A DNA stretch of 44,834 nt. Source: Phycisphaerales bacterium (GTDB taxonomy: Bacteria; Planctomycetota; Phycisphaerae; Phycisphaerales; UBA1924). Every line of letters begins with the position of its first letter. The stretch's first letter is position 1. A model generated the notes under the pieces. That model was given only the letters and a program-made list of their open reading frames with translations, was not told the DNA's origin and made no database searches. Of the stretch, positions 6,369-37,693 are shown piece after piece. The DNA lies in assembly GCA_035628055.1 (NCBI GenBank), contig DASPKO010000156.1, positions 1 to 44,834 on the forward strand. The letters run 5' to 3'. Both the position numbers and the translations under genes were made by a program.

Positions 6369-7640
6369 CTATCGGGCGTGGCGGAGGGGGACCGCGAGCA
6401 TGCTGTAGAAGAAGGACATCAGCACGGTCTGGACCCCCAGCGCGACCATGGTCCCGCCCACGAGCATGGGCCGGATGGTGCGCTCGAGGGGCATCGCTCC
6501 CCACCACTCGAAGAGCCAGCGGGCGACGAGGTAGGCCAGGATGGCCAGGCCGCTGATCACCAGGGCCCCGCCCGCCAGCAGGCCCCGTTCCAGGCTGAAG
6601 AGGTCCGTCAGGCGGCGCACGAAGGGCGAGCTGGGCGGTCCGAGCTCCTCCTGCATGGCGTAGACGCGTGCGGCGATGCCCACCGTGAGCGCGGTGTAGC
6701 CCACGAGGATCATGAAGCCCGCACCCGCGAGCGTGTGCGGGCCGAGCTGGACGTTCCCGACGCGGTCCAGGCCCATGGCCAGGGGGAGGCCGATGGCCAG
6801 GCCCAGGAGCGTGAGCCCCAGGCCGGGGTAGACGAGCGTCCAGCGCGGGCTGAGCAGGAGCATGAAGCGGAGGTGCCGCCAGCCGTCGCGCCACGGCCGC
6901 AGGTGGGGCGGGCGCGAGCGTCCGTCCTTGTGCATGGTGATGGGGACCTCGGCGATGCGCAGGCGCGCCACCGTGGCCTTGATCACCATCTCGCTGGCAA
7001 ACTCCATTCCCGTGGTTCGGAGGCGGAGCGCGTCGTAGGCGGACCGGGTGAACCCGCGGAGGCCACAGTGAAAGTCCGCGACCGGGGCCCGGTAGACCAG
7101 GCGGCCGATGCCCGTGAGCACGGGATTGCCGACCCACCGGTTCTTCCAGGACATGGCCCCGGGCATGATCCCGCCGCGGAACCGGTTGCCCATCACCAGG
7201 TCGTACCCCTCGCGCAGCTTGTGGAGCAGGGTGACGGCCTCGGCGAAGTCGTGGCTGCCGTCGGAATCGCCCATGACGACGTATGTGCCGCGCGAGGCCT
7301 CGATGGCCCCCATGAGCGCGCTCCCGTAGCCCCGGCGGGGCACGGGCACGACGCGGGCCCCGGCCCGGCGGGCGAGCTCCTGGGACCCATCCGTCGACCC
7401 GTTGTCCCCGACGACCACCTCGCCCTCGATGTGGTTTTCGCGGAGGCAGCGGACCGCGGAAGCCACGCAGGCCGCGATCGTCTCGGCCTCATTGAGGCAC
7501 GGGATCGCGATGGAGAGCTCGGGCCGCCCCGGGTCGGTGTCGCGGGGAGCGGCGGCGGGCGCCCGCACGGCGTGGGCCGAGGCGGGAGTCGCGACCTCGA
7601 GGGCCGGCTTGGCTTCGATCTGTGGGGTTGAGGAGGGCAC
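6369..7640 (-). CDS. Family 2 glycosyltransferase with C-terminal multi-TM domain (polyprenyl-phosphate sugar synthase-like)
   Basis: LSIAIPCLNEAETI, VVGDNGSTDGS, GYGSALMGA and VVMGDSDGSHD (DxD-type) blocks, followed by about four hydrophobic helices. The start is uncertain. GTG 7640 lies 22 nt after the upstream gene's stop, whereas the track start at 7814 would overlap that gene by about 150 nt. Confidence 0.75.
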   Translation of the reverse strand: MPSSTPQIEAKPALEVATPASAHAVRAPAAAPRDTDPGRPELSIAIPCLNEAETIAACVASAVRCLRENHIEGEVVVGDNGSTDGSQELARRAGARVVPVPRRGYGSALMGAIEASRGTYVVMGDSDGSHDFAEAVTLLHKLREGYDLVMGNRFRGGIMPGAMSWKNRWVGNPVLTGIGRLVYRAPVADFHCGLRGFTRSAYDALRLRTTGMEFASEMVIKATVARLRIAEVPITMHKDGRSRPPHLRPWRDGWRHLRFMLLLSPRWTLVYPGLGLTLLGLAIGLPLAMGLDRVGNVQLGPHTLAGAGFMILVGYTALTVGIAARVYAMQEELGPPSSPFVRRLTDLFSLERGLLAGGALVISGLAILAYLVARWLFEWWGAMPLERTIRPMLVGGTMVALGVQTVLMSFFYSMLAVPLRHAR

Positions 7641-7662: not shown

Positions 7663-9222
7663 TTAGCGGGGTTCGCCGGGAGCACCGGGAGTCCGGCCCG
7701 ACGCGGTCGGTGCGCGCGGGCACGGCGCGGGTGCGCCGGGGAGGGGTAGGGCCGGGCGGGCGTGGGACGCTTCGTCGTGCGCCGCCGCGGGCGCGCGTCG
7801 CCAGAGGGCCGCAAGGCCGGCCGGGGCCAGATACATCATGATCCAGGAGGGCAGGCCGTAGCGGTCGTAGATGAGGAGCATGGCGACGTGCACGCCGATG
7901 AGGGCGACGGGCACGGCGAAGAGGAGCGCCAGGTCGAACCGCCGCCGGAGGAGCGCCAGCCCGATGACGCCCAGGGTGAGGAGGCAGAGCGGGACCTGGG
8001 GGATGCCGCGGAAGCGCTGGCGGCCGAGCCAGCCGAAGAGCCGGGCGGGGGGGCCGCCGTCGTTCCACATCTGGTACGGGACCATGGAGGGGTCGCGGGA
8101 GTCGGTGAAGAAGTTGGGCGGGGCGTCGGGGTTGGGGGGCGGATCGGCACGGCCCAGGCCGCGCATCAGCCACGCGGTCTCGCTGTACCCGTTCCAGCCG
8201 GCGGAAGGGAAACAGTTGAGCTGCCAGAGCGTCACCCAGGCGGCGGTGCGGAGGTAGTGCCTGGTGCGGGAGCGCACGCTGTGCCGGCACCAGCGGGCGA
8301 TTTCGTCGGCGGCTTCGGGCGAGTCCGGGAGGCCGACCGCGCGGAGGAAGACGAAGCGGCTGGTCTCGGTGGGCGGCGTCTGCTTGAAGAGGGCGTAGGC
8401 GGCCGCGGTCTGCGGGCGGAGCGGGAAGGCCTCGTCGAGCATGCCGGCGCGCTCGAAGCCCACGAAGAGGATCATCTCGGTGCCGTTGGCCAGGCCCACG
8501 ATCCCGCGGCGCGCGTTGTGGACCAGCCAGGGCCCCAGGAGCAGCGCCAGGCCCAGGGCCAGCCCGGTCGCCACCGGGGCGGCGGCGCGGGCACGGGCTC
8601 GCAGGGCGGGACCTGCCGCGCCGCGGGCCCCGTGGCGCCAGGCGTCGAGCAGGGCCGCGGCCCCCACGAGGGGGACGGCGATCTGCATGGCGGGGCGGAC
8701 GAGACAGGCGGCCGCGAGCACCGCGCCCAGCAGCAGCCCGCCCGCGAGGCCACGCGACCATCGCAGCATGACCACCGCGAGCGCGAGCACGCTGAGGAAC
8801 GTGGCGGGCGCCTCGCTGAGAGCGCAGCACTCCAGGGTGAGCATCCAGGGGTCAAGGGCGAGCGCAAGCCCGACGCCGAGTGCCAGCAGGGGCCCGGCGA
8901 CTCGCGCGGTGACGAGCGCCCCCAGGGCGACGACCCCGACGCCCAGCAGGTGCTGGGCGAGCACGATGGCGGTCGGGGTCTGACCGGCCAGCGCCACCAC
9001 CGCGGAGAGGAAGAGGGGATAGCCCGGGGTGCGGACTCCGGGGAAGTCGGGCCACTGGCCCGCGGCGAGCTGGGCGGCCCAGAGCAGGTAGTCGCCGCTG
9101 TCGGTGGTCATCGTGAGCGGGATGGTGCCGGTGAGGTAGAGGCGGACGAGCATGGCGACCGCGACGGGCACGAGCAGGGCGTGCCGAGGGCCAAGACGGG
9201 GTGCCGGGCGCGGGTCAGGCAT
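7663..9222 (-). CDS. GT-C fold membrane glycosyltransferase (ArnT/PMT, GT39-like), paralog 1
   Basis: Polytopic membrane protein. The first predicted extracytoplasmic loop, TMTTDSGDYLLWA, has an acidic D..Y motif like ArnT/PMT enzymes. Clearly homologous to the upstream gene (shared RTPGYP.FL, LAQHL.G, ALDPW, EC..L.EA). Start taken as ATG 9222, which overlaps the upstream stop in ATGCCTGA. Confidence 0.7.
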   Translation of the reverse strand: MPDPRPAPRLGPRHALLVPVAVAMLVRLYLTGTIPLTMTTDSGDYLLWAAQLAAGQWPDFPGVRTPGYPLFLSAVVALAGQTPTAIVLAQHLLGVGVVALGALVTARVAGPLLALGVGLALALDPWMLTLECCALSEAPATFLSVLALAVVMLRWSRGLAGGLLLGAVLAAACLVRPAMQIAVPLVGAAALLDAWRHGARGAAGPALRARARAAAPVATGLALGLALLLGPWLVHNARRGIVGLANGTEMILFVGFERAGMLDEAFPLRPQTAAAYALFKQTPPTETSRFVFLRAVGLPDSPEAADEIARWCRHSVRSRTRHYLRTAAWVTLWQLNCFPSAGWNGYSETAWLMRGLGRADPPPNPDAPPNFFTDSRDPSMVPYQMWNDGGPPARLFGWLGRQRFRGIPQVPLCLLTLGVIGLALLRRRFDLALLFAVPVALIGVHVAMLLIYDRYGLPSWIMMYLAPAGLAALWRRAPAAAHDEASHARPALPLPGAPAPCPRAPTASGRTPGAPGEPR

Positions 9223-23514: not shown

Positions 23515-24819
23515 ATGCCGCGCGTCAGCTACGAATCCAACCCGAAGATCGCGGTCGTGCTGGACATGCTGGCGGAAATGAGCCGCGCCGAAACATCGGT
23601 GGACTCGTTTCTCGCCTTCATGACCCGGTTCTGGCAGGTGCGCTCGATCGACCTGTTCGTGGGCGTGACCGTCCAGGACCTCCCCCCGGGGGACTACCGC
23701 GTCGTGTACCAGATCAAGTCGGCGGAGCTGGCGGCCGGCGACCGGCGGAGGCTCGATGAGGCGGCCATGGCGCCCAGCGCCGAGCTCCCGATCCGCCGGG
23801 GCGGGCTGATCGGGGAGATCGTGACCGAGCAGCGGCCGCTGCTGCTGCATCACCTGGCGCTGGAGCACGACCCGGCCCTGGGCAGCGACGCGGCGGAGGT
23901 GCGCGCCTGCATGGCGCTCCCCATCTATGAGCAGGGGCGGATCGTCGAGTGGGCCCTGGGCTTCAGCGTGGACCCGGAGGGCTTCACCCCCGAGGTGCTC
24001 GAGGAGGCCCTGCTGACGGCGAACCTGCTCGGGCTGGTGCAGCGGCATCTGTGGTCGCTGGGGCAGATCCGCCAGCTCAACCAGCGGCTCACCTCGCAGT
24101 TCGAAGAGGTGGCCCGGGTGCAGCAGCAGCTCCTGCCCGTGCGCCACCCGCCCATCCCCGGGGTCGTCCTGTCGACGAGCTATCTCCCCAGCGACGTCGC
24201 CGGGGGCGACTATTACGACTTCTTCGAGCTGGCCGACGGGCGCTGGGGCTTGCTGGTCGCCGACGCCTCCGGGCACGGCGTGGGGGCCGCGACCGTGATG
24301 GCGATGCTGCACGCCTTCCTGCACTCGTACCCGGCGCTGGAGCGCGGGCCGGCCTCGGTGCTGGGCTGGGTGAACCGGCGCCTGGCCGCGGCGCGGATGG
24401 ACGGGAGCTTCGTCACGGCGCTCTTCGCGATCTACGACCCGCGCACGCGCGAGCTGGTGTACGCGCGGGCGGGGCACCCGCTCCCGCGGCTCAAGCCCGC
24501 GGGGCGCGGGTCGGCGGTGATCGAGCTCAACGGGTCGGCGGGGCTCCCGCTGGGCATCGCCCCCGAGTATCACGTGGAGGAGTCGCGCGTGGTGCTCGAG
24601 CCCGGGCACACCCTGGTGCTGTTCACGGACGGGATCACCGAGGCCTTCTCGCCGCGCCGCGAGATGTTCGGCACGGGCGGGCTCGACGAGGCCCTCGAGG
24701 CCTGCACGGGCGAGCCGGACTGCGTGGTGGACACGGTGCACAACGCCCTCTACCAGCACACCGGGCGGCGCACGCGCGATGACGACCAGACCCTGGTGGC
24801 GCTGAAGGTGGTTCACTAG
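23515..24819 (+). CDS. GAF-like sensor fused to a PPM/SpoIIE-type serine phosphatase (RsbU-like)
   Basis: The N-terminal 190 aa or so are GAF-like. A coiled linker QLNQRLTSQFEEVARVQQQLLP follows. Phosphatase blocks are GGDYYDF, LLVADASGHGVGAA, SFVTALFAIYD, LVLFTDGITEA and RDDDQTLVALKV. Confidence 0.85.
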   Translation: MPRVSYESNPKIAVVLDMLAEMSRAETSVDSFLAFMTRFWQVRSIDLFVGVTVQDLPPGDYRVVYQIKSAELAAGDRRRLDEAAMAPSAELPIRRGGLIGEIVTEQRPLLLHHLALEHDPALGSDAAEVRACMALPIYEQGRIVEWALGFSVDPEGFTPEVLEEALLTANLLGLVQRHLWSLGQIRQLNQRLTSQFEEVARVQQQLLPVRHPPIPGVVLSTSYLPSDVAGGDYYDFFELADGRWGLLVADASGHGVGAATVMAMLHAFLHSYPALERGPASVLGWVNRRLAAARMDGSFVTALFAIYDPRTRELVYARAGHPLPRLKPAGRGSAVIELNGSAGLPLGIAPEYHVEESRVVLEPGHTLVLFTDGITEAFSPRREMFGTGGLDEALEACTGEPDCVVDTVHNALYQHTGRRTRDDDQTLVALKVVH

Positions 24820-28180: not shown

Positions 28181-28900
28181 TCAGCGGGGTCGTGGGGCCG
28201 GCGTGGGCGCCGGCGTCGGCGAGGGTGCTGGCGTCGGCGTCGGCGCGGGCGCGGGCTCGGGGGCCTGCGGGTCACGACTGGGTCCGTCGCCGGCCGGCTC
28301 TGGGAGCGCCAGCGTCGTGTCCTGGCGGCCCGGCACGGGCACGGCGGCGGGGGTGAACGTTCCATTGATGCTCAGGCCCGCCGGGAGCGGGGCGTAGAGC
28401 TCGATCGAGATCTGCGAAATCGGCATCGGCACGCCCGGGATGCGCGGCGTCTCGGAAGGGGTCAGGGTCGCGATGACCAGGACCGGTCCCTGCTCGGGGA
28501 CGCCGGCCAGCGGCTCGCGGCCCGGGGCGCCGTCACCCGCACCCGCCATGCCGCGCATCATCCGCTTGTGCGTGGGGCTGTCGTACCAGGCACGCACGGC
28601 CGCCTTGTCCTGGAACCAGGCGAAGATGACGGCCTTGCCGGTCTGGGTCTGGGCGAGCTCGGTGCCAAGGCAGCCCGGGCTGGCTTTCAGACCCGCCACG
28701 AGACGGTCGCCCATCATCGAGATCCCGCCGGCCGGGGGGCGCGCCGGGGGGCGCTCCCGGGGGCCGGGGGGCGCGGGGGAGGCCGGCGGTGCCGCGGACG
28801 CGGGCGGCCGGGGCGCGCCCACGGCGAGGGCCGCTCCCGCCAGGGGCAGCGCCAGGGTGAGCAGGGCGAGGGCACGGGACCGGGGAACGCCATGGATCAT
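28181..28900 (-). CDS. Secreted protein with ABM-like (dimeric alpha/beta barrel) domain and Pro/Thr/Ala-rich tail
   Basis: ATG 28900, signal peptide MIHGVPRSRALALLTLALPLAGAALA. The segment ASPGCLGTELAQTQTGKAVIFAWFQDKAAVRAWYDSPTHKRMM resembles antibiotic-biosynthesis-monooxygenase-type domains. Tail APEPAPAPTPTPAPSPTPAPTPAPRPR. This is only the last 239 codons of the 1459-aa track ORF. Confidence 0.55.
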   Translation of the reverse strand: MIHGVPRSRALALLTLALPLAGAALAVGAPRPPASAAPPASPAPPGPRERPPARPPAGGISMMGDRLVAGLKASPGCLGTELAQTQTGKAVIFAWFQDKAAVRAWYDSPTHKRMMRGMAGAGDGAPGREPLAGVPEQGPVLVIATLTPSETPRIPGVPMPISQISIELYAPLPAGLSINGTFTPAAVPVPGRQDTTLALPEPAGDGPSRDPQAPEPAPAPTPTPAPSPTPAPTPAPRPR

Positions 28901-29050
28901 GGGGTCGGGCTCCAGGTGGGTGCGCGGCGGATTGTTGGCCCCGCCTCCCGGCCGAGCGCGATGCCGCGCGCGCCGGCGCGGTCGTGCGCGGGCCCGGCCG
29001 GGGGGGCGCCAGACGGAGCGGAGCGCCGGAGTCGAGTACACTCCGCGCGC

Positions 29051-29566
29051 ATGAAGATCCTGGCCGACGCCGGCGAGATCGAGAGACTGATCGCCGACCT
29101 GGCGGGGCGCATACGTGCCGAGACGCCCGACATGGACCGGCTGGGGCTGGTGGGCATCCGCCGGCGGGGTGACGTGCTCGCGGCACGCCTGGCTCGGCAC
29201 CTGGGCGTGCGCGACGTGGGCTCGATCGACATCACGCTCTACCGGGACGATCTCTCCGAGACGGGTCCGGCGGCGCGGGTGGGGCGGACCAGCATCGACT
29301 TCTCCATCGAGGGGCGCGACGTCGTTCTCGTCGACGACGTGATCATGACCGGGCGGTCGTCCCTGGCGGGCATCCGCGAGATCGTCGACTTCGGCCGGCC
29401 GGCCCGTCTGCGGCTGGCGGTGCTGGTCGAGCGTCCCGAGCGCGAGCTCCCGATCCAGCCCGAGTTCGTGGCGATCCGCGCCCGCCCGGAGCCCTTCGAG
29501 AAGGTGGACGTCCGGCTGCTCCCGCAGGACGACGTGGACCGCGTCTCGATCAACCCGCGGCTCTAG
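29051..29566 (+). CDS. pyrR: Bifunctional pyrimidine operon regulator / uracil phosphoribosyltransferase
   Basis: 171 aa from ATG 29051. LVGIRRRGDVLA, ITLYRDD and the PRPP-binding loop VVLVDDVIMTGRS, typical of PyrR. Internal to the 652-aa track ORF. Confidence 0.9.
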   Translation: MKILADAGEIERLIADLAGRIRAETPDMDRLGLVGIRRRGDVLAARLARHLGVRDVGSIDITLYRDDLSETGPAARVGRTSIDFSIEGRDVVLVDDVIMTGRSSLAGIREIVDFGRPARLRLAVLVERPERELPIQPEFVAIRARPEPFEKVDVRLLPQDDVDRVSINPRL

Positions 29567-32590
<3,024 letters not shown>

Positions 32591-32717: not shown

Positions 32718-33590
32718 GTGCCGCCACGGGTGCGCCTGACGGATAACGAGCGGGGCAATACGCTCGGGCTCTCGCGCCGCGATCTGGACGAGCTCATCGC
32801 CGAGATTGAGATCGCGCAGCGGGACGATCCGGGCGTGCACCGGCGCTTCCGCCGACGGCAGTATCGCCAGTTGGCCCTGGCCCTCCAGGTGCATCAGCCC
32901 GGGGGCAGCACGTCGACGTTCCCCGTGGTCTCCCGGAATATCTCGCGGACGGGCATGGCGGTGCTGCACCGGGCCTACATCCACCTGGGCGTGCGGGTGC
33001 AGGTCGCTCTCCCACGGCGCGCCGCGGCCACGCTCAGCGTGAGCGCCCACGTGGTCCGCTGCCGGCACGTCTCGGGGATGGTGCACGAGATCGGGCTGCA
33101 GTTCGATCATCCCATCCAGCTTCGCGACCTGGTCGACCTCGAGCTCAACGACGATTGGCTCTCGCTCGAGACCGTGGAGCCGGCCACCCTGGTGGGCTCG
33201 GTCCTGCTGGCCGACCCGTCCGCCGAGGACCGGGGCCTGCTGCGGGGGCACCTGCGCGGGGCGCGGCTCTCGATCACCGAGGCGGAGACGCCCGAGGCCG
33301 CCCTGGCCGCCGCGGCCCGGCCCAATGACCTGATCATCACGGAATACTTCTTCGGCGGGCGGCCCGCGGAGGACCTGCTGCTCTCCCTCCGCCAGCTCGC
33401 GCCGCGGACCCCCCTGCTGGTGCTGACCGCGGACGTCTCGGAGGTGACACGCCGCCGGCTGGGCACGCTCGGGGCGGCCTCGCTGCTCAAGCCCGTGGAT
33501 GAACTCACCGCCCTGCGGGCCATCGGGGAGTTCCTGGGGGCGGGGGGACCGGCCGGGGCCAAGGCCTCCGGGCTGGCCCGCACCGCGTGA
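32718..33590 (+). CDS. PilZ domain + receiver-like domain protein (phospho-acceptor Asp replaced by Glu)
   Basis: AAGGAG 7 nt upstream of GTG 32718. PilZ motifs RRRQYR ... NISRTG. C-terminal CheY-like fold markers are VLLADPS, DLIITEY (E209, codon 33342-33344, where the conserved Asp is expected), LLVLTAD and LLKP. Confidence 0.75.
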   Translation: MPPRVRLTDNERGNTLGLSRRDLDELIAEIEIAQRDDPGVHRRFRRRQYRQLALALQVHQPGGSTSTFPVVSRNISRTGMAVLHRAYIHLGVRVQVALPRRAAATLSVSAHVVRCRHVSGMVHEIGLQFDHPIQLRDLVDLELNDDWLSLETVEPATLVGSVLLADPSAEDRGLLRGHLRGARLSITEAETPEAALAAAARPNDLIITEYFFGGRPAEDLLLSLRQLAPRTPLLVLTADVSEVTRRRLGTLGAASLLKPVDELTALRAIGEFLGAGGPAGAKASGLARTA

Positions 33591-33691
33591 GCGACTCAAG
33601 CCGGGGCCGGATCGCCCCGAAATAACTCCGCCACGGTGGCGGCCACGACCGGCTTGCCCACGGAACCAGACTCGAACAGCGGAGCAAGCGC

Positions 33692-35089
33692 GTGTCCACT
33701 AGCGATCCGGTGACGTCCCAGCAGCTCCACCTCTCGGGGGGGTTCGGGCGTGCCGCCAACTCCGCCCGCTCCGGGTACCTGCCGATCCCGCTCACGCGCG
33801 TGCCGATCGCCGCCCTGAAGAACCTCCCGCTGTACGTGCGCGTCCGGCACACGCCGGACGACAAGGCCGCGTTCCGTCTGTATCGGGCCCCGGAGATCAC
33901 CTTCACCGACTCGGACCGGCAGCGGCTCATCGCCGGGGGGACGCAGTTCCTGTACATCCAGATGGCGGACCAGAGCCGCTTCCGCCAGCAGACCGTCGAG
34001 TGCCTGACCGACCTGGCCTCGGACCCGTCCACGGCGGTCGCGGCCCGCTCGGCGATCATCTACAAGACCAGCATCGAGCTGGTGAACGAGCTGCTGGCCG
34101 AGCCCGACCTGGCCGCCAAGGCCCCGCGGCTCGAGGTCGTCTCCAAGTCCATCACGGCGCTGGTCATCAACGATCAGAACGCCTTCTCCCACCTCTTCGC
34201 CGCCTCGCACCACGACTTCTACACCGCGACCCACATGGTGAACGTGGCCACGTGGATGACCACCCTGGCCTACGCCATGGGCCGGCGCAGCACCGACGAG
34301 CTGAACCTGATCTGCCAGGCGGGGCTCCTGCACGACATCGGCAAGCTCTACATCCCCGAGGACCTGCTCAACAAGAAGGGCAAGCTCGAGGACCGCGAGT
34401 GGGCCGTGATCCGCGAGCACCCCGTGCGCGGCTGCGAGCACCTCGCCAAGTTCGAGGGCATCGACCCGCTCACGTTCACCGTGACGCGCCAGCACCACGA
34501 GCGCATGGATGGCACCGGGTATCCCGACGGGCTCAAGGGCGATCAGATCCACCCGGTCAGCCGCATCTGCGCCGTGGTCGATTCCTTCGACGCCATGACC
34601 GCGTTCCGCCCCTTCAAGACGCGGACGTTCACCGTGGAACAGGCGATGGAGGTGCTCGAGTCCGAGACCCCCGCGAAGTACGACCCCGAGGTCTTCGCCG
34701 CCTGGAAGGCCCTGCTCGAGTCCGCCCCCCCCGAGGCCGACGTCTCCCCCAGCGCCGAGGCCCCGGCGGCCGGAGGCGGGGCCGAACGCCGGCAGTTCCA
34801 GCGCTACCCGCTTCACACGCCGGCCCGGGTCCACCCCCTGGCGGCGGGGTCGGGGCGCTGGAACGAGATGCCGGCCATCCAGGCGGTGACCCACAGCATC
34901 TCCCGGGCGGGACTGGGGTTCCTCAGCCCGTCGCCGATCCAGATCGGCGAGTTCGTGAGGCTGTACCTCTCCACGCCCGCCGACAAGAACTTCATGGGCC
35001 AGATCGTGCGCAGCCGCTCCTACCGGGACGGCTGGTTCGAGGTCGGGCTCTGCTTCTCCCAGCTCCCCGCGATGGGCCAGGCGGCCTGA
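33692..35089 (+). CDS. HD-GYP domain c-di-GMP phosphodiesterase with C-terminal PilZ-like domain
   Basis: GGAG 7 nt upstream of GTG 33692. THMVNVA, AGLLHDIGK, REHP, HHERMDGTGYPDGL (HD-GYP signature) and VVDSFDAMT. C-terminal RRQFQR ... HSISRAG (PilZ-like, with His in place of D/N). Confidence 0.85.
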   Translation: MSTSDPVTSQQLHLSGGFGRAANSARSGYLPIPLTRVPIAALKNLPLYVRVRHTPDDKAAFRLYRAPEITFTDSDRQRLIAGGTQFLYIQMADQSRFRQQTVECLTDLASDPSTAVAARSAIIYKTSIELVNELLAEPDLAAKAPRLEVVSKSITALVINDQNAFSHLFAASHHDFYTATHMVNVATWMTTLAYAMGRRSTDELNLICQAGLLHDIGKLYIPEDLLNKKGKLEDREWAVIREHPVRGCEHLAKFEGIDPLTFTVTRQHHERMDGTGYPDGLKGDQIHPVSRICAVVDSFDAMTAFRPFKTRTFTVEQAMEVLESETPAKYDPEVFAAWKALLESAPPEADVSPSAEAPAAGGGAERRQFQRYPLHTPARVHPLAAGSGRWNEMPAIQAVTHSISRAGLGFLSPSPIQIGEFVRLYLSTPADKNFMGQIVRSRSYRDGWFEVGLCFSQLPAMGQAA

Positions 35090-35174
35090 CGCCGGCGCCC
35101 GCGCGGGCGCGGCAGAAGCCCGGCCCCGGATCGGCCGATGTCTGCACTACGGGCCGTCAGGAGGCCCCGCGACC

Positions 35175-37466
35175 ATGCCCCCCCGCGTCCGCATAACCTC
35201 GCACCAGCGCCCGAACTCGCTTCGGCTGTCGCAGCGCGACCTGGACGCGATGCTCGCCGAGCTCGACGCGGGCCGCCCGGGGTCGAAGTCCACGAGCGTG
35301 CGCCGGTGCCGGCGCCGGCAGTTCCGCCAGCTCGCGCTGCCCATGGAGATCCTGCAGCCGGGCGGAACCTGGTCGCGGTTCGCGGTGGTGTCGCGGAACA
35401 TCTCCCGGTCGGGGATGGCCCTGCTGCACCGGGCGTACGTGCACGTCGGGGTGCGCTGCACCGTGGCCCTCCCGCTCACCGAGGGCCGGGTGCTCAACTG
35501 CCCCGCCCGCGTGGTGCGCTGCCAGCACATCCGGGGGATGGTGCACGAGATCGGGCTCTGCTTCGACGCGCCCATCGAGCTCCGCGAGGTCGCGGCGCTC
35601 GACCTGGGGTCGGACTGGATGGCCGCCGAGCGCGTCGAGCCGCGGGCGCTCTGCGGGACGATGCTGCTGATCGACCCCAACGCCGAGGACCGGTCGCACC
35701 TGCGCGAGCTGCTGGGCCGCACCAAGATCATCCTCACCGAGGCCGACGGCCCCGAGGCGGCGATGGGCCTGCTGGCGTCCCCGTTCGGGATCATCCTCAC
35801 CGAGTTCACCTTCCGGGGCAAGGGGGACGAGGACCTGGTGCGCGGCCTGCGCGCCTGCTGCCCGCAGACGCCCGTGATCGTGGTCACGCAGAACATCTCC
35901 GAGGTCACGCGCCGGCGGCTGGCGACCCTCTCCAGCGGCGTGCTGCTCAAGCCCCTGGACGAGGCGACGCTGCACCGCGCCCTGGCCGAGTTCCTCCTCC
36001 CGCTCCCGGGCGCGGGCGAGCCGCGCGACGTGCGCGGGCCCAAGAAGAAAGGCGGCGACGTGGCCAGCGACGACCAGCCGACCCTCGAGCAGCTCAACCT
36101 TTCCGGCAGCTTCGGGCGGGCCGCGGGCACGGCCCGTGCCGGGTTCCTGCCCGTCCCGCTCGAGCGCATCCCGCTCGCGGCGGTGCAGCGGCTGCCCCTG
36201 TACACCCGCGTGCGCGAGACCGCCAACGACGAGAGCGACTTCAGCCTCTACCGGGCCCCGGAGGTCCCCTTCACCGCGACGGACCGGGACCGCCTGCTGG
36301 CCTCGGGCGTGCGGTTCGTCTACCTTCGCATGGCCGACCAGCCCGTCCTCCGGGCCACCTCGCTCAGCGCGCTTCCCGAGATCGCGGCCGACCAGGCGAC
36401 CACCGCGGCCACGCGGGCCGCCATCGTCTATGACGCGAGCATCGAGCTGGTCAATGAGATCCTCGCGGACCAGAACTCCCCGGAGATGCCCGCCAAGCTC
36501 GCGAAGGTGAGCGCGGCCCTGAGCTACGTGGTGCTCAATGACCGCCGGGCCTTCGCCCACCTCTTCTCGGCCGCCCACCACGACTTCTACGCCGCCACGC
36601 ACATGGTCAACGTGGCCGCCGGCATGACCTGCCTGGCCTTCAACCTCGGGCACAACGACCCCGCCTTCCTGGCCGCGGTCTGCCAGGCCGGGCTCCTCCA
36701 CGACATCGGCAAGCAGCACATCCCCGAGCACGTGCTCAACAAGCGCGGGCGGCTGCACCCGGACGAGTGGGCGATCATCCGCGAGCATCCGACGCGCGGC
36801 TGCGAGCAACTGGCCCGCTTCCCGGGCTTGGACCCGCTCGTGACCACCGTCACGCGCCAGCATCACGAGCGGCTCGACGGCTCGGGCTACCCCGACGGGC
36901 TCAAGGGGCAGGAGATCCATCCCGTCAGCCGGATGTGCGGGCTCGTGGACTCCTTCGACGCCATGACCGCTTTCCGACCCTTCAAGACCCGGACGTTCAG
37001 CGTCGCCAAGGCGATGGAGATCCTCGAGGCCGAGACCCCGACGCGGTACGACTCGGAGACCTTCGACGCCTGGAAGAAGCTGGTCTCCACGGTCTCGGAG
37101 CTGGAGCTGGGGGCGGGCGAAGCGACCGCCTCCGGCGGCGCGGACCCCGGCAGCGAGGCGGACCGCCGGCAGCACGAGCGGCACCCGCTGCACGCGCCGG
37201 CGCGCGTCCATCCGGTCGTCGTCTCGGGCACGGGCTGGGTGGAACAGCCGGGCATGCAAGTGGTCATGCACAGCCTGTCGCGCTCGGGCATGGGGTTCCT
37301 GAGCCCGGCCCCGGTGCAGATCGGCGAGTTCGTGCGCGTGTACCTGGCCGGGGCGGGGGAGAAGGTCTTCGAGGGCCAGACCGTCCGCAATCGGGCCTAC
37401 CGGGACGGCTGGTTCGAGATCGGCATGGCCTTCGCGCCGCTGCCCACCATGAGCGCCGCGGCCTGA
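35175..37466 (+). CDS. Fused PilZ / receiver-like / HD-GYP / PilZ-like protein (single-ORF paralog of the two preceding genes)
   Basis: AGGAGG upstream of ATG 35175. Colinear with 32718-33590 plus 33692-35089. Motifs in order: RRRQFR...NISRSG; MLLIDPN, GIILTEF (E210, codon 35802-35804), VIVVTQN, LLKP; AGLLHDIGK, HHERLDGSGYPDGL; RRQHER...HSLSRSG. Confidence 0.85.
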   Translation: MPPRVRITSHQRPNSLRLSQRDLDAMLAELDAGRPGSKSTSVRRCRRRQFRQLALPMEILQPGGTWSRFAVVSRNISRSGMALLHRAYVHVGVRCTVALPLTEGRVLNCPARVVRCQHIRGMVHEIGLCFDAPIELREVAALDLGSDWMAAERVEPRALCGTMLLIDPNAEDRSHLRELLGRTKIILTEADGPEAAMGLLASPFGIILTEFTFRGKGDEDLVRGLRACCPQTPVIVVTQNISEVTRRRLATLSSGVLLKPLDEATLHRALAEFLLPLPGAGEPRDVRGPKKKGGDVASDDQPTLEQLNLSGSFGRAAGTARAGFLPVPLERIPLAAVQRLPLYTRVRETANDESDFSLYRAPEVPFTATDRDRLLASGVRFVYLRMADQPVLRATSLSALPEIAADQATTAATRAAIVYDASIELVNEILADQNSPEMPAKLAKVSAALSYVVLNDRRAFAHLFSAAHHDFYAATHMVNVAAGMTCLAFNLGHNDPAFLAAVCQAGLLHDIGKQHIPEHVLNKRGRLHPDEWAIIREHPTRGCEQLARFPGLDPLVTTVTRQHHERLDGSGYPDGLKGQEIHPVSRMCGLVDSFDAMTAFRPFKTRTFSVAKAMEILEAETPTRYDSETFDAWKKLVSTVSELELGAGEATASGGADPGSEADRRQHERHPLHAPARVHPVVVSGTGWVEQPGMQVVMHSLSRSGMGFLSPAPVQIGEFVRVYLAGAGEKVFEGQTVRNRAYRDGWFEIGMAFAPLPTMSAAA

Positions 37467-37693
37467 GCACCGGCGCGGCGGCGGGCGGTGGCCGGTCGAG
37501 CCCGGCCCGTCTGCGCGTCAGCGCCGCGGTTTTTCCGTCGAGCCCGCCCGCGCGGTCCCGCTCATGCCCCGGCGCGCCCGGGAGCCTATCGCCCCCGGGC
37601 CCCGGCAACCGGGGCCTCGGCGGACCGGTACACGGGCTCGTCGACGCCGCATGTCACAGGGGCCACGCCCCACCGCCCCGGGAGACCGCCGCC

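Follow-up and report, generated by a model that had tools for sequence, protein, structure and literature searches.

Fusions of the PilZ domain with the receiver domain (REC) and with the HD-GYP domain have been catalogued since 2006 (cited in 10.1101/814665). The PilZ-REC response regulator PixA of Myxococcus xanthus has been shown to bind c-di-GMP in vitro, with the D180E variant behaving as a phosphomimic (PMC8316039). PA4108 and VC2497, which are grouped with Bd1817 as DUF3391-HD-GYP proteins, are active c-di-GMP phosphodiesterases, and the HD-GYP domain of ECA3548 from Pectobacterium atrosepticum, inactivated by changes of HD to HT and of HHE to ANE, fails to hydrolyze c-di-GMP (10.1101/2021.11.05.467447). 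Two related cassettes of such domains lie in tandem in the 44,834-nucleotide window (the whole stretch of DNA analyzed) from a Phycisphaerales bacterium, and the earlier note on this DNA did not recognize them as a characterized architecture. This is correct for the complete five-domain arrangement, which is unique, and incorrect for its parts, as PilZ-REC and PilZ with HD-GYP fusions were already known and all of the building blocks are of known types. On the whole, it seems fairly probable that the locus represents lineage-specific paralogous c-di-GMP phosphodiesterase cassettes that are gated by PilZ domains, one of which (B) arose by fusion.

Gene organization of the two copies

Three forward-strand ORFs follow gyrB, namely A1 (32718-33590, 290 aa), a free PilZ/pseudo-receiver protein with AGGAG 7 nt before its GTG start, A2 (33692-35089, 465 aa), a predicted Bd1817-like HD-GYP phosphodiesterase with a C-terminal PilZ, and B (35175-37466, 763 aa), a fused five-domain protein with AGGAG 11 nt before its ATG start. 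Given the fact that A1, A2, and B each have their own SD, that no forward-strand terminator was found inside the A1-A2-B unit, and that a GC-rich hairpin followed by a U-run lies after B (37467..37530, + strand; TTTTT at 37521-37525), the three genes probably form one transcription unit. The hairpin is terminator-like and weak alone, folding at -43.8 kcal/mol (z -1.75) with 11 of 200 shuffles folding equally well.

Copy A (A1 and A2) was found to be colinear with copy B, as had been noticed by eye. Concatenated A1+A2 (755 aa) aligns with B end to end with a score of 2186 (shuffles, -142 ± 25) and 420 of 753 identical columns, so that the former estimate of about half now stands at 56%, and all of the shared blocks quoted earlier occur in both copies. 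Separately, B residues 1-283 are 53% identical to A1 (E 9e-89) and residues 296-763 are 57% identical to A2, while nucleotide identity between the copies is just 63-69%. All three ORFs bear the coding signature of a 73% GC genome (GC3 0.92-0.97, GC2 0.47-0.49), and dN/dS between the copies is ~0.5, a value that is inflated as extreme GC3 compresses dS and that shows constraint weakly. In NJ trees A1 pairs with the N-terminal half of B and A2 with its C-terminal half, suggesting that the cassette was duplicated as a unit. A2 is equally near an outsider, P0031 (59%), and the C-terminal half of B (58%), which indicates an old duplication and a shallow tree.

It had been argued that the interruption of copy A is not a single-base error, and this has been borne out. 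TGA at 33588-33590, TAA at 33623-33625 in the A2 frame, and GGAG at 33681-33684, 7 nt before GTG 33692, were all confirmed. The 101-nt spacer (33591..33691, + strand) has stops in both frames and a palindrome (33628-33642), and its folding is no better than that of shuffles. A1 and A2 lie in different reading frames, as would suit the idea that pseudogenization, a frameshift error, or mis-assembly made copy A a decaying or artefactual form of copy B. However, the copy A junction is by coordinates ~104 nt longer than the B linker, which is not a one-base slip, both ORFs of copy A have remained intact across more than 30% nucleotide divergence and bear the coding GC3 signature, every functional motif is retained, and A2 comes with an SD and a start of its own. 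Moreover, a difference of 31-37% between the copies at the nucleotide level excludes assembly collapse. The split is thus no single-base error, assembly artifact, or recent pseudogene, and the idea is effectively refuted.

Domain architecture and the probable substrate

The earlier note had counted four domains, and its PilZ, receiver-like, HD-GYP, and PilZ calls were right, but it missed a fifth; the order is PilZ, pseudo-receiver, Bd1817-like N-domain, HD-GYP, and PilZ. In the Pfam check, the two terminal PilZ domains and the central HD_5/HD scored above the gathering scores and Response_reg below, and AF2 models of the two halves reached pLDDT 84 and pTM 0.71-0.72. The N-terminal PilZ of A1 (32841..33110, + strand; 40.4 bits, cut-off 22.5), with its beta-barrel modeled at residues 54-129, carries RxxxR as R42/R46/R50 and N74-I-S76-R-T-G79, and that of B (35301..35573, + strand) carries R43/R47/R51 and N75-I-S77-R-S-G80; these motif residues are invariant or nearly so across the family. 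The pseudo-receiver follows at 33192..33536 in A1 and 35655..36005 in B (both + strand). In A1 it scores 19.4 bits, under the cut-off of 30.2, and its AF2 model shows the whole (beta-alpha)5 fold; the REC region matches CheY4 in Foldseek with TM 0.84 and rmsd 2.1 Å. In both copies the position of CheY D57 is Glu (E209 in ITEY of A1, E210 in LTEF of B) and that of D13 is Pro, with T87 and K109 kept.

The ~145 residues that separate REC from HD-GYP (33752..34186 in A2, 36120..36554 in B, + strand) fold like the N-terminal domain of Bd1817 according to AF2 and Foldseek, with four strands and long helices in the model of the B segment, to which that of A2 is homologous. Indeed, the enzyme half matches full-length Bd1817 with TM 0.71-0.74 over ~305-345 columns, and no PF11871 (DUF3391) sequence hit was found in 30 family members of the enzyme half.

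The HD-GYP domain occupies 34187..34741 in A2 (+ strand; HD_5 108.8 bits; H181, H214-D215, K218, H243, H268-H269-E270, G276-Y277-P278, D297, R306) and 36555..37109 in B (+ strand; H476, H509-D510, K513, H538, H563-H564-E565, G571-Y572-P573, D592, R601), and its catalytic motifs are intact in both, as previously described. The H, HD, K, H, HHE, DGxGYP, D, and RPxK positions are kept in both copies and in 30 family members, and at the equivalent of PmGH E185 there is a Tyr, with an Asp two residues further upstream, so that the metal center may be of more than one type and the end product either pGpG or GMP. HD-GYP would hydrolyze c-di-GMP. It is very improbable that the true substrate is another cyclic dinucleotide such as 3′3′-cGAMP, in which case PilZ would bring cross-regulation by c-di-GMP instead of self-gating. 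Some HD-GYP enzymes do hydrolyze cGAMP (10.1101/2021.11.05.467447), and the top PDB sequence match of the catalytic domain is the cGAMP-specific V-cGAP3 (5z7c, E 1e-21), but the c-di-GMP enzyme PmGH scores practically equal (E 1.7e-21), the enzyme family keeps the K and the Y of GYP that contact c-di-GMP, and no cGAMP synthase was noticed among the neighbors scanned.

The C-terminal PilZ lies at 34784..35068 in A2 (+ strand; Pfam PilZ 39.4 bits; R367-x-x-x-R371, S402-I-S404-R-A-G407) and 37161..37445 in B (+ strand; R665-x-x-x-R669, S700-L-S702-R-S-G705), and the Foldseek matches of the enzyme half include PilZ structures with bound c-di-GMP. All four PilZ domains carry RxxxR, and the two N-terminal ones carry NxSxxG as well, suggesting that these domains may bind the nucleotide. 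In the C-terminal PilZ, Ser replaces the Asp/Asn of canonical [D/N]xSxxG, and N, S, and D alternate at this position across the family, so its c-di-GMP affinity is uncertain.

Independent families and the origin of copy B

In an exhaustive phmmer search of 1.84 billion representatives, 43 representatives span the enzyme half as a single stretch, 19 span the sensor half only, and no protein besides B was found to join both halves; the long multi-stretch matches contain no PilZ. The enzyme half matches stand-alone proteins of ~440-510 aa in at least 43 clusters, and A2, with the length of this family, starts exactly at its N-terminus. In loci L001-L006 these HD-GYP-PilZ genes stand alone without a PilZ-REC neighbor. 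The sensor half, on the other hand, matches uncharacterized PilZ-REC-Hpt proteins of Phycisphaerae, 34-45% identical to A1 and to B residues 1-285, that have the N-terminal NSLGL helix motif and the PilZ motifs in common with A1 and B. Their genes come right after gyrB (L012, L014, L015/L019, L016, and L018), and in the loci examined no HD-GYP was found within 8 kb of them. The gyrB upstream of our cassette (29573..32590, + strand) is 65-70% identical to the gyrB of those loci and serves as a synteny anchor, A1 occupying the conserved gyrB-adjacent slot of the family. In contrast to the family, A1 and B have no Hpt-like C-terminal domain; a phosphodiesterase is linked or fused to them in its place.

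Copy A had been described as split, which is probably the wrong way round. Given that the halves are independent elsewhere, that A2 starts where its family starts, that A1 sits in the gyrB slot, and that B is the sole fused protein, parsimony makes B most likely a derived fusion rather than copy A a fission. An HD-GYP-PilZ gene from the populous stand-alone family would have landed behind a gyrB-linked PilZ-REC gene, with Hpt lost, the two-gene cassette would have duplicated in tandem, and a ~104 nt deletion in the downstream copy would have removed the stop and the intergenic region, giving the in-frame fusion B. In B, the linker RDVRGPKKKGGD is followed by the GTG codon of V296 (36024..36062, + strand), which aligns with the codon that starts A2, and AAGAAGAAAGG, a purine-rich tract, ends 7 nt before this GTG; the two may be a fossil start codon and ribosome-binding site. 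The intermediate states are unobserved, since no genome closely related to this one was found.

In the reverse scenario, which we regard as unlikely, a fused PilZ-REC-HD-GYP-PilZ protein came first, was duplicated, and was then split in the upstream copy by an insertion that brought the stop codon, spacer, and new ribosome-binding site and start codon. In-gene recombination replacing Hpt would yield such a fused protein directly, the tail of A1 after REC is short and without a homologue, the total number of events is the same, and the junction DNA is uninformative, being too diverged for a deletion scar to be visible. However, a ~104 nt insertion plus a frame change would be needed, and a new start and SD would have to appear precisely at the N-terminus native to the stand-alone enzymes. 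The fused form is seen only in B, while both separate forms are common, and B retains the GTG and purine-rich tract where A2 starts. The fusion of B is thus the favored direction.

Predicted regulation and comparison with known systems

Each cassette brings together two modules that in all other cases are genes of their own. The first, with its N-terminal helix, PilZ, and pseudo-receiver, would be a c-di-GMP receptor descended from the PilZ-REC-Hpt gene, and the second a Bd1817-like HD-GYP phosphodiesterase that has a C-terminal PilZ of its own. The PilZ domains may bind c-di-GMP and set the enzyme activity, so that degradation would be gated by the substrate level, with activation at high c-di-GMP, the favored sign, producing a ceiling or homeostat. 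The pseudo-receiver, locked by the Asp-to-Glu change and presumably not phosphorylatable, could convey the signal from PilZ to the catalytic half, in trans by a putative A1-A2 contact and in cis in B. Hydrolysis is likely controlled by c-di-GMP binding to PilZ without phosphorylation, and self-gating of the predicted phosphodiesterase by its substrate is plausible. By Rosetta-stone logic it is reasonable that the two halves work together, and the occurrence of fused and two-gene copies is a hint that the enzyme is under the control of the sensor protein.

Alternatively, PilZ and the pseudo-receiver might not tune catalysis but link the occupancy or turnover of c-di-GMP to a partner protein, in the manner of an effector or trigger enzyme, or PilZ might serve only dimerization or localization; we consider this improbable. 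The ancestral PilZ-REC-Hpt protein presumably worked through a partner likewise, its family resembling a phosphorylation-independent adaptor with a degenerate acceptor residue and an Hpt-like helical domain. Some PilZ proteins work purely by protein contacts (10.1101/814665), the motility role of PixA does not need c-di-GMP binding (PMC8316039), and trigger phosphodiesterases are an established concept (PMC5052742). However, the N-terminal PilZ keeps both binding motifs family-wide and the C-terminal one keeps RxxxR, the catalytic residues are fully kept, and the target is suggested to be the enzyme itself by its fusion with the sensor module, as in the PilZ-gated reading that we prefer.

Among described proteins, ECA3548 (PilZN-PilZ-HD-GYP) also has PilZ-type receptor domains and HD-GYP in one protein (10.1101/2021.11.05.467447), but its PilZ is N-terminal only, whereas here the catalytic set is intact and the enzyme is bracketed by PilZ. 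Bd1817, PA4108, and VC2497 share the two-domain core of A2 and the C-terminal half of B, a small beta/alpha N-domain, long helices, and HD-GYP, and phmmer aligns B residues 372-601 to Bd1817; in contrast to them, A2 and B carry the additional C-terminal PilZ, PF11871 is undetected by sequence, and the catalytic motifs are canonical (HHE..DG.GYP), unlike those of Bd1817 itself. The RpfG family of REC-HD-GYP response regulators likewise has a receiver fold upstream of an HD-GYP phosphodiesterase, and the best NCBIfam match is a REC-HD-GYP family (NosR type), far under its cut-off. Here, however, Glu replaces the acceptor Asp and Pro stands at the D13 position, residues that predict no phosphorylation, a Bd1817-type domain lies between REC and HD-GYP, PilZ stands at both ends, and the copy A receiver is a separate polypeptide. 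PixA resembles A1 and B by domain order, an N-terminal PilZ with both binding motifs preceding a receiver, but it keeps the phosphorylatable Asp and regulates cell polarity, whereas A1 and B have a natural Glu and a phosphodiesterase partner. In the GAF-regulated eukaryotic PDE2 and PDE5 and in I-site feedback of diguanylate cyclases, the nucleotide made or destroyed binds a separate allosteric site of the same protein; their folds and origins are unrelated to those of the present cassettes, for which a comparable allostery is hypothetical.

Domain architecture of the split and fused copies

Copy A comprises two + strand ORFs, the sensor ORF A1 (32718-33590, 290 aa) and the enzyme ORF A2 (33692-35089, 465 aa), and copy B is a single fused + strand ORF located downstream (35175-37466, 763 aa), all three at exactly the coordinates reported in an earlier note. 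A1 is 53% identical to B residues 1-283 (E 9e-89) and A2 is 57% identical to B residues 296-763. The proposed colinearity of the copies was borne out, as concatenated A1 and A2 align with B from end to end with 420 of 753 columns identical (score 2186, against -142 +/- 25 for shuffled sequence), and the shared sequence blocks that had been listed were all found in both copies. The described stops TGA (33588-33590) and TAA (33623-33625) are present, as is the GGAG (33681-33684) located 7 nt upstream of the A2 start GTG 33692, and the reading frames of A1 and A2 differ. From the conserved GAGGP to the A2 start, copy A has 140 nt and the equivalent in B, by coordinates, has 36 nt. DNA identity between the copies is only 63-69%, and the base composition of each of the three ORFs is that of coding sequence in this 73% GC genome (GC3 0.92-0.97, GC2 0.47-0.49). 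Taken together, the ORFs, alignments, spacer, DNA identity and coding signature establish that the split of copy A is real and old; the same evidence rules out that it stems from a slip in sequencing, an artefact of assembly or recent pseudogene formation, and a reading in which copy A is decayed or artefactual is effectively excluded. The dN/dS between the copies (NG86) is of limited use where GC3 exceeds 0.92.

A Pfam scan finds a PilZ domain at either end with HD_5/HD between them, each above its gathering score. The domain order given previously (PilZ, receiver-like, HD-GYP, PilZ) therefore stands, but the count of four does not, because a fifth, Bd1817-like domain had been overlooked: the true architecture is PilZ, pseudo-receiver, Bd1817-like N-domain, HD-GYP and PilZ. 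Against a gathering cut-off of 22.5 bits for PilZ (PF07238), A1 scores 40.4 bits, A2 39.4 bits and B 69.7 bits over two stretches, so the terminal domains are PilZ as had been claimed, and the profile is also matched by 28 of 30 members of the stand-alone HD-GYP-PilZ enzyme family. The RxxxR motif is kept in all four PilZ domains, at R42/R46/R50 of A1 and R43/R47/R51 of B in the N-terminal domains, and at R367..R371 of A2 and R665..R669 of B in the C-terminal domains. The [D/N]xSxxG motif is canonical in the N-terminal domains (NISRTG, NISRSG), and the C-terminal domains have Ser at its first position (SISRAG, SLSRSG), a column that alternates between N, S and D in the enzyme family. The sensor and enzyme halves were modelled separately by AlphaFold2, each on its own family alignment, so that the models hold no inter-half geometry; both are confident (pLDDT 84.4, pTM 0.72; pLDDT 84.1, pTM 0.71) and contain the expected six-stranded PilZ barrel, with strands at 54-129 in A1 and 375-458 in the C half of B. 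Foldseek matches to PilZ structures include PA0012, YcgR, PP4397, MapZ and the BcsA PilZ. With binding motifs intact or near-intact, the two PilZ receptors bracketing the enzyme are predicted to bind c-di-GMP.

In the model of the sensor half, a helix (20-34) and the PilZ barrel are followed by a complete (beta-alpha)5 receiver (159-273), which superimposes on CheY4 in Foldseek with TM 0.84 and 2.1 A. The Response_reg profile (PF00072) scores 19.4 bits in A1 and 22.9 bits in B, below its gathering cut-off of 30.2 bits, and several relatives in the sensor family pass this cut-off. Alignment with E. coli CheY places Glu at D57 and Pro at D13 in both copies, with the equivalents of D12, T87 and K109 kept. 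Because of the two substitutions, the domain is, as judged from its residues, a pseudo-receiver for which phosphorylation on Asp is predicted to be impossible. In the sensor family the acceptor position is degenerate, with a residue other than Asp in 14 of 21 compared sequences (D 7, E 6, S 4, A 3, N 1). Glu at the acceptor position of a receiver is a classical phosphomimic, and in the PilZ-REC protein PixA the substitution D180E acts as such (PMC8316039).

The enzyme half starts with four beta-strands followed by long helices (A2 residues 21-165), modelled as strands 29-33, 47-50, 61-65 and 86-90 and helices 91-160, and this domain of ~145 aa intervenes between the receiver and HD-GYP. The best Foldseek matches are full-length Bd1817 (~305-345 aligned columns, TM 0.71-0.74), ranking above PmGH, DvhD and PA4781, and the published description of the Bd1817 N-domain (3TM8) fits the modelled fold (10.1101/2021.11.05.467447). 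The DUF3391 profile (PF11871) is matched by 0 of 30 members of the enzyme family at E <= 1, and P0081, an unrelated match, does match it; the N-domain as modelled is thus Bd1817-like by fold only.

The HD_5 profile scores 108.8 and 105.6 bits. Both copies carry HHDFY.ATH, AGLLHDIGK, REHP, QHHER.DG.GYP, VDSFDAMT and RPFK, and the catalytic set (H, HD, K, H, HHE..DG.GYP, D..D, RP.K) is complete in both copies and in 30 relatives, so that the HD-GYP assignment holds with all HD and GYP positions retained on alignment. The position of PmGH E185, the N-terminal-loop acidic residue marking the trinuclear subclass (four residues before the first His), is occupied by Tyr, preceded at a distance of two residues by a conserved Asp. 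The NCBIfam NosR-type (REC-HD-GYP) model scores 79-99 bits, compared with its cut-off of 400. By analogy with PA4108 and VC2497, which share this core and hydrolyse c-di-GMP (10.1101/2021.11.05.467447), the catalytic half should do the same. A rival reading assigns it a different substrate such as cGAMP, in line with the equal scores of V-cGAP3 and PmGH against the catalytic domain.

Separate families and the origin of the fused gene

The two halves of B belong to families that are separate elsewhere. In a word-indexed protein search, A1 returned itself alone and missed the 53%-identical B, and B missed A2 despite 57% identity; since this search overlooked the paralogues within the window, claims of absence are based on an exhaustive phmmer search with B as query against 1.84 billion representatives. 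No second protein in that library matches both halves of B, and because any homologue of both would score near the top, the fused form appears to be unique within it. Enzyme-half relatives are 43 representatives of ~420-510 aa covering B from ~300-360 to ~750 unbroken, PilZ included, and sensor-half relatives are 19 representatives, mostly of 380-400 aa, covering only residues 1-285; the latter are PilZ-REC proteins, mostly with an extra C-terminal Hpt-like domain. Long matches in multiple stretches are tandem HD-GYP, GAF/PAS or REC-HD-GYP proteins, all without PilZ. The comparison of split and fused forms proposed in the earlier note thus finds separate halves to be common and the fused form a singleton.

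Genomic neighbourhoods were collected in a census that is small but consistent, comprising 5 loci from a genome scan (four-sequence alignment) and 7 from a metagenome scan. HD-GYP-PilZ genes stand alone in every context recovered, including that of P0031, the closest outsider to A2 (59% identity), and no PilZ-REC gene was found upstream of them in these contexts. The MAGs carrying PilZ-REC-Hpt genes are assigned to Phycisphaerales, Phycisphaeraceae and other planctomycetes; the genes lie directly downstream of gyrB in L012 (8001-9182), L014 (8001-~9150), L015/L019 (3760-4851 in L019), L016 and L018 (8001-9104), but not in L010/L013 or L017. A fructosamine-kinase gene is often next, and no HD-GYP gene occurs within 8 kb in the loci examined. 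This family of ~380-400 aa, to which P0075 and P0105-P0178 also belong, is uncharacterised and conserved directly after gyrB in Phycisphaerae MAGs. By eye, the Hpt-like motif of the family, C-x-x-[IL]-[KR]-G-x-A-P-x-x-G-F, lacks a His at the CheA/ArcB-type phospho-His position and carries a conserved Cys one residue before it; judging by these residues, the family resembles a relic of a phosphorelay that became a c-di-GMP receptor. In L016, a Phycisphaeraceae MAG, two tandem PilZ-REC paralogues (6702-7487 and 8001-8804) come straight after gyrB, so the window is not alone in having a tandem duplication at this locus.

The window has the order PRTase, gyrB, A1, A2, B, redoxin-family protein and then, on the other strand, P-type ATPase, with A1 immediately downstream of gyrB (29573-32590, + strand, 1005 aa). 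Homology to the PilZ-REC-Hpt family spans the helix, the PilZ and the REC of both A1 and the sensor half of B (identity 34-45%; tblastn E values from 1e-47 to 1e-67), and both nest within the family tree. The Hpt is present in the other loci; A1 and the sensor half of B end or diverge right after REC, and the window holds no Hpt match downstream. Since adjacency to gyrB is conserved in the relatives, A1 is, as gene order and homology indicate, in the conserved PilZ-REC-Hpt slot, having lost the Hpt and gained a phosphodiesterase neighbour. GyrB of the window is 65-70% identical to that of the MAGs carrying this family, and the organism is accordingly assigned to their group. The gyrB ORF is of unusual length, and its C-terminal half contains low-complexity stretches rich in Ala, Pro, Gly and Glu; because its relatives align over 930-1017 aa at this identity, a long GyrB is common to the planctomycete group. 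A 1459-aa ORF opposite gyrB (28181-32560) fails the GC3/GC2 coding filter used on the window and is therefore probably an antisense artefact of high GC. A further signalling protein, a GAF-SpoIIE (PP2C-type) phosphatase, is encoded about 8 kb upstream of A1 (23515-24819), and the product of the gene that follows it, 551 aa long, matches AAA_16 weakly.

In neighbour-joining trees A1 pairs with the sensor half of B and A2 with its enzyme half, so the two-gene unit was duplicated as a whole. The difference between the copies probably reflects fusion in B. Fusion is favoured because the two halves commonly occur apart and are joined in a single protein of the library, because A2 begins at the position where the stand-alone enzymes have their N-terminus, because the codon of B aligned with the A2 start is itself GTG (36060, V296), and because an in-frame deletion of ~104 nt is simpler than an insertion making a stop, spacer, Shine-Dalgarno and start. 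The purine-rich AAGAAGAAAGG, which ends 7 nt before GTG 36060 (window 36042-36062), the same spacing as that of the GGAG before A2, and is now translated as KKKG, looks together with this codon like the relic of a former translation start with its ribosome-binding site, and the pair could support internal initiation giving a free HD-GYP-PilZ enzyme from B. No deletion scar is recognisable in the DNA alignment at the junction, where the DNA is too diverged. The argument is one of parsimony, and the analysis turned up no close relative of the genome. Fission in copy A, the direction implied when copy A had been called split, is unlikely, requiring an insertion that created a stop, spacer, Shine-Dalgarno and start right at the native boundary; what stands of that description is the two-ORF form.

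Expression and a possible regulatory mechanism

Each of the three ORFs is preceded by a Shine-Dalgarno motif, a simple terminator scan found no + strand terminator between gyrB and the end of B, and a sigma-70 promoter scan gave no match. Predicted folding of the internal spacers is no more stable than that of shuffled sequence. Just after the B stop codon lies a long GC-rich hairpin (37467-37530, -43.8 kcal/mol) followed by the U-run GGUUUUUCC, which folds only marginally better than shuffles (z -1.75) and is likely an intrinsic terminator whose large loop and inner stem kept the simple scan from picking it up. Co-transcription of A1, A2 and B thus seems likely. The A1-A2 spacer also contains a perfect 15-nt palindrome, CCGCCACGGTGGCGG (33628-33642), flagged as terminator-like on the minus strand only; the whole spacer folds no better than shuffles.

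In the most economical reading, c-di-GMP occupancy of the PilZ domains would set phosphodiesterase activity, with the pseudo-receiver as a relay linking the N-terminal PilZ to the enzyme; the sensor module would control A2 in trans as the free protein A1, and would work in cis within B. By analogy with GAF phosphodiesterases stimulated by their substrate, we favour activation at high c-di-GMP, which would make the enzyme a ceiling or homeostat, and inhibition fits the sequence equally. In a rival reading the proteins are adaptors or trigger enzymes, whose PilZ and pseudo-receiver talk to another partner. The full proposal, a self-gated phosphodiesterase whose hydrolysis is switched on by substrate that binds two flanking PilZ domains and acts through a phosphorylation-dead receiver, is put forward tentatively. 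If true, bacteria would have an equivalent of the GAF phosphodiesterases that cGMP stimulates, the split and fused paralogues would show that a free PilZ/pseudo-receiver protein can serve an HD-GYP enzyme as its regulatory subunit in trans, and a former phosphorelay module (REC-Hpt) would have been rewired into a nucleotide-controlled switch.

Significance and relation to known systems

Regulation of HD-GYP phosphodiesterases is far less understood than that of EAL enzymes, and the locus offers a good experimental handle on it as a clean Rosetta-stone case: because sensor and enzyme exist both split and as one chain in one genome, regulation in trans and in cis is directly comparable. It also brings out two uncharacterised families, the stand-alone HD-GYP-PilZ enzymes (dozens of clusters) and the gyrB-linked PilZ-REC-Hpt proteins of Phycisphaerae, and illustrates the recruitment of a degenerate phosphorelay module to second-messenger control. 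Its practical value is as a lead on c-di-GMP homeostasis mechanisms, with no new class of system, and a c-di-GMP specialist would be unsurprised in principle.

The original PilZ description, as cited in 10.1101/814665, lists fusions to REC, GGDEF, EAL and HD-GYP. Studied proteins include the PilZ-REC protein PixA (PMC8316039) and the PilZN-PilZ-HD-GYP protein ECA3548, whose catalytic site is dead (10.1101/2021.11.05.467447). Neither the components nor the principle of combining them is therefore new. In the literature searched, whose coverage is incomplete, we found no paper on an active HD-GYP with a C-terminal PilZ or on the PilZ-REC-Hpt family, and no dedicated study of a named HD-GYP-PilZ or PilZ-REC architecture; in the searchable literature there seems to be no characterised example of a phosphodiesterase that is catalytically active and fused to PilZ receptors. 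Of the related families, RpfG is REC-HD-GYP and Bd1817 is DUF3391-HD-GYP (10.1101/2021.11.05.467447). Unlike the RpfG family, the window proteins have no acceptor Asp and no phosphorylatable receiver directly coupled to HD-GYP, whereas with the Bd1817 family they share the fold of the N-domain and of the helices leading into HD-GYP but not the DUF3391 sequence match. What is new compared with these systems is the five-domain protein, its adjacent split twin and the recruitment of a gyrB-linked sensor.
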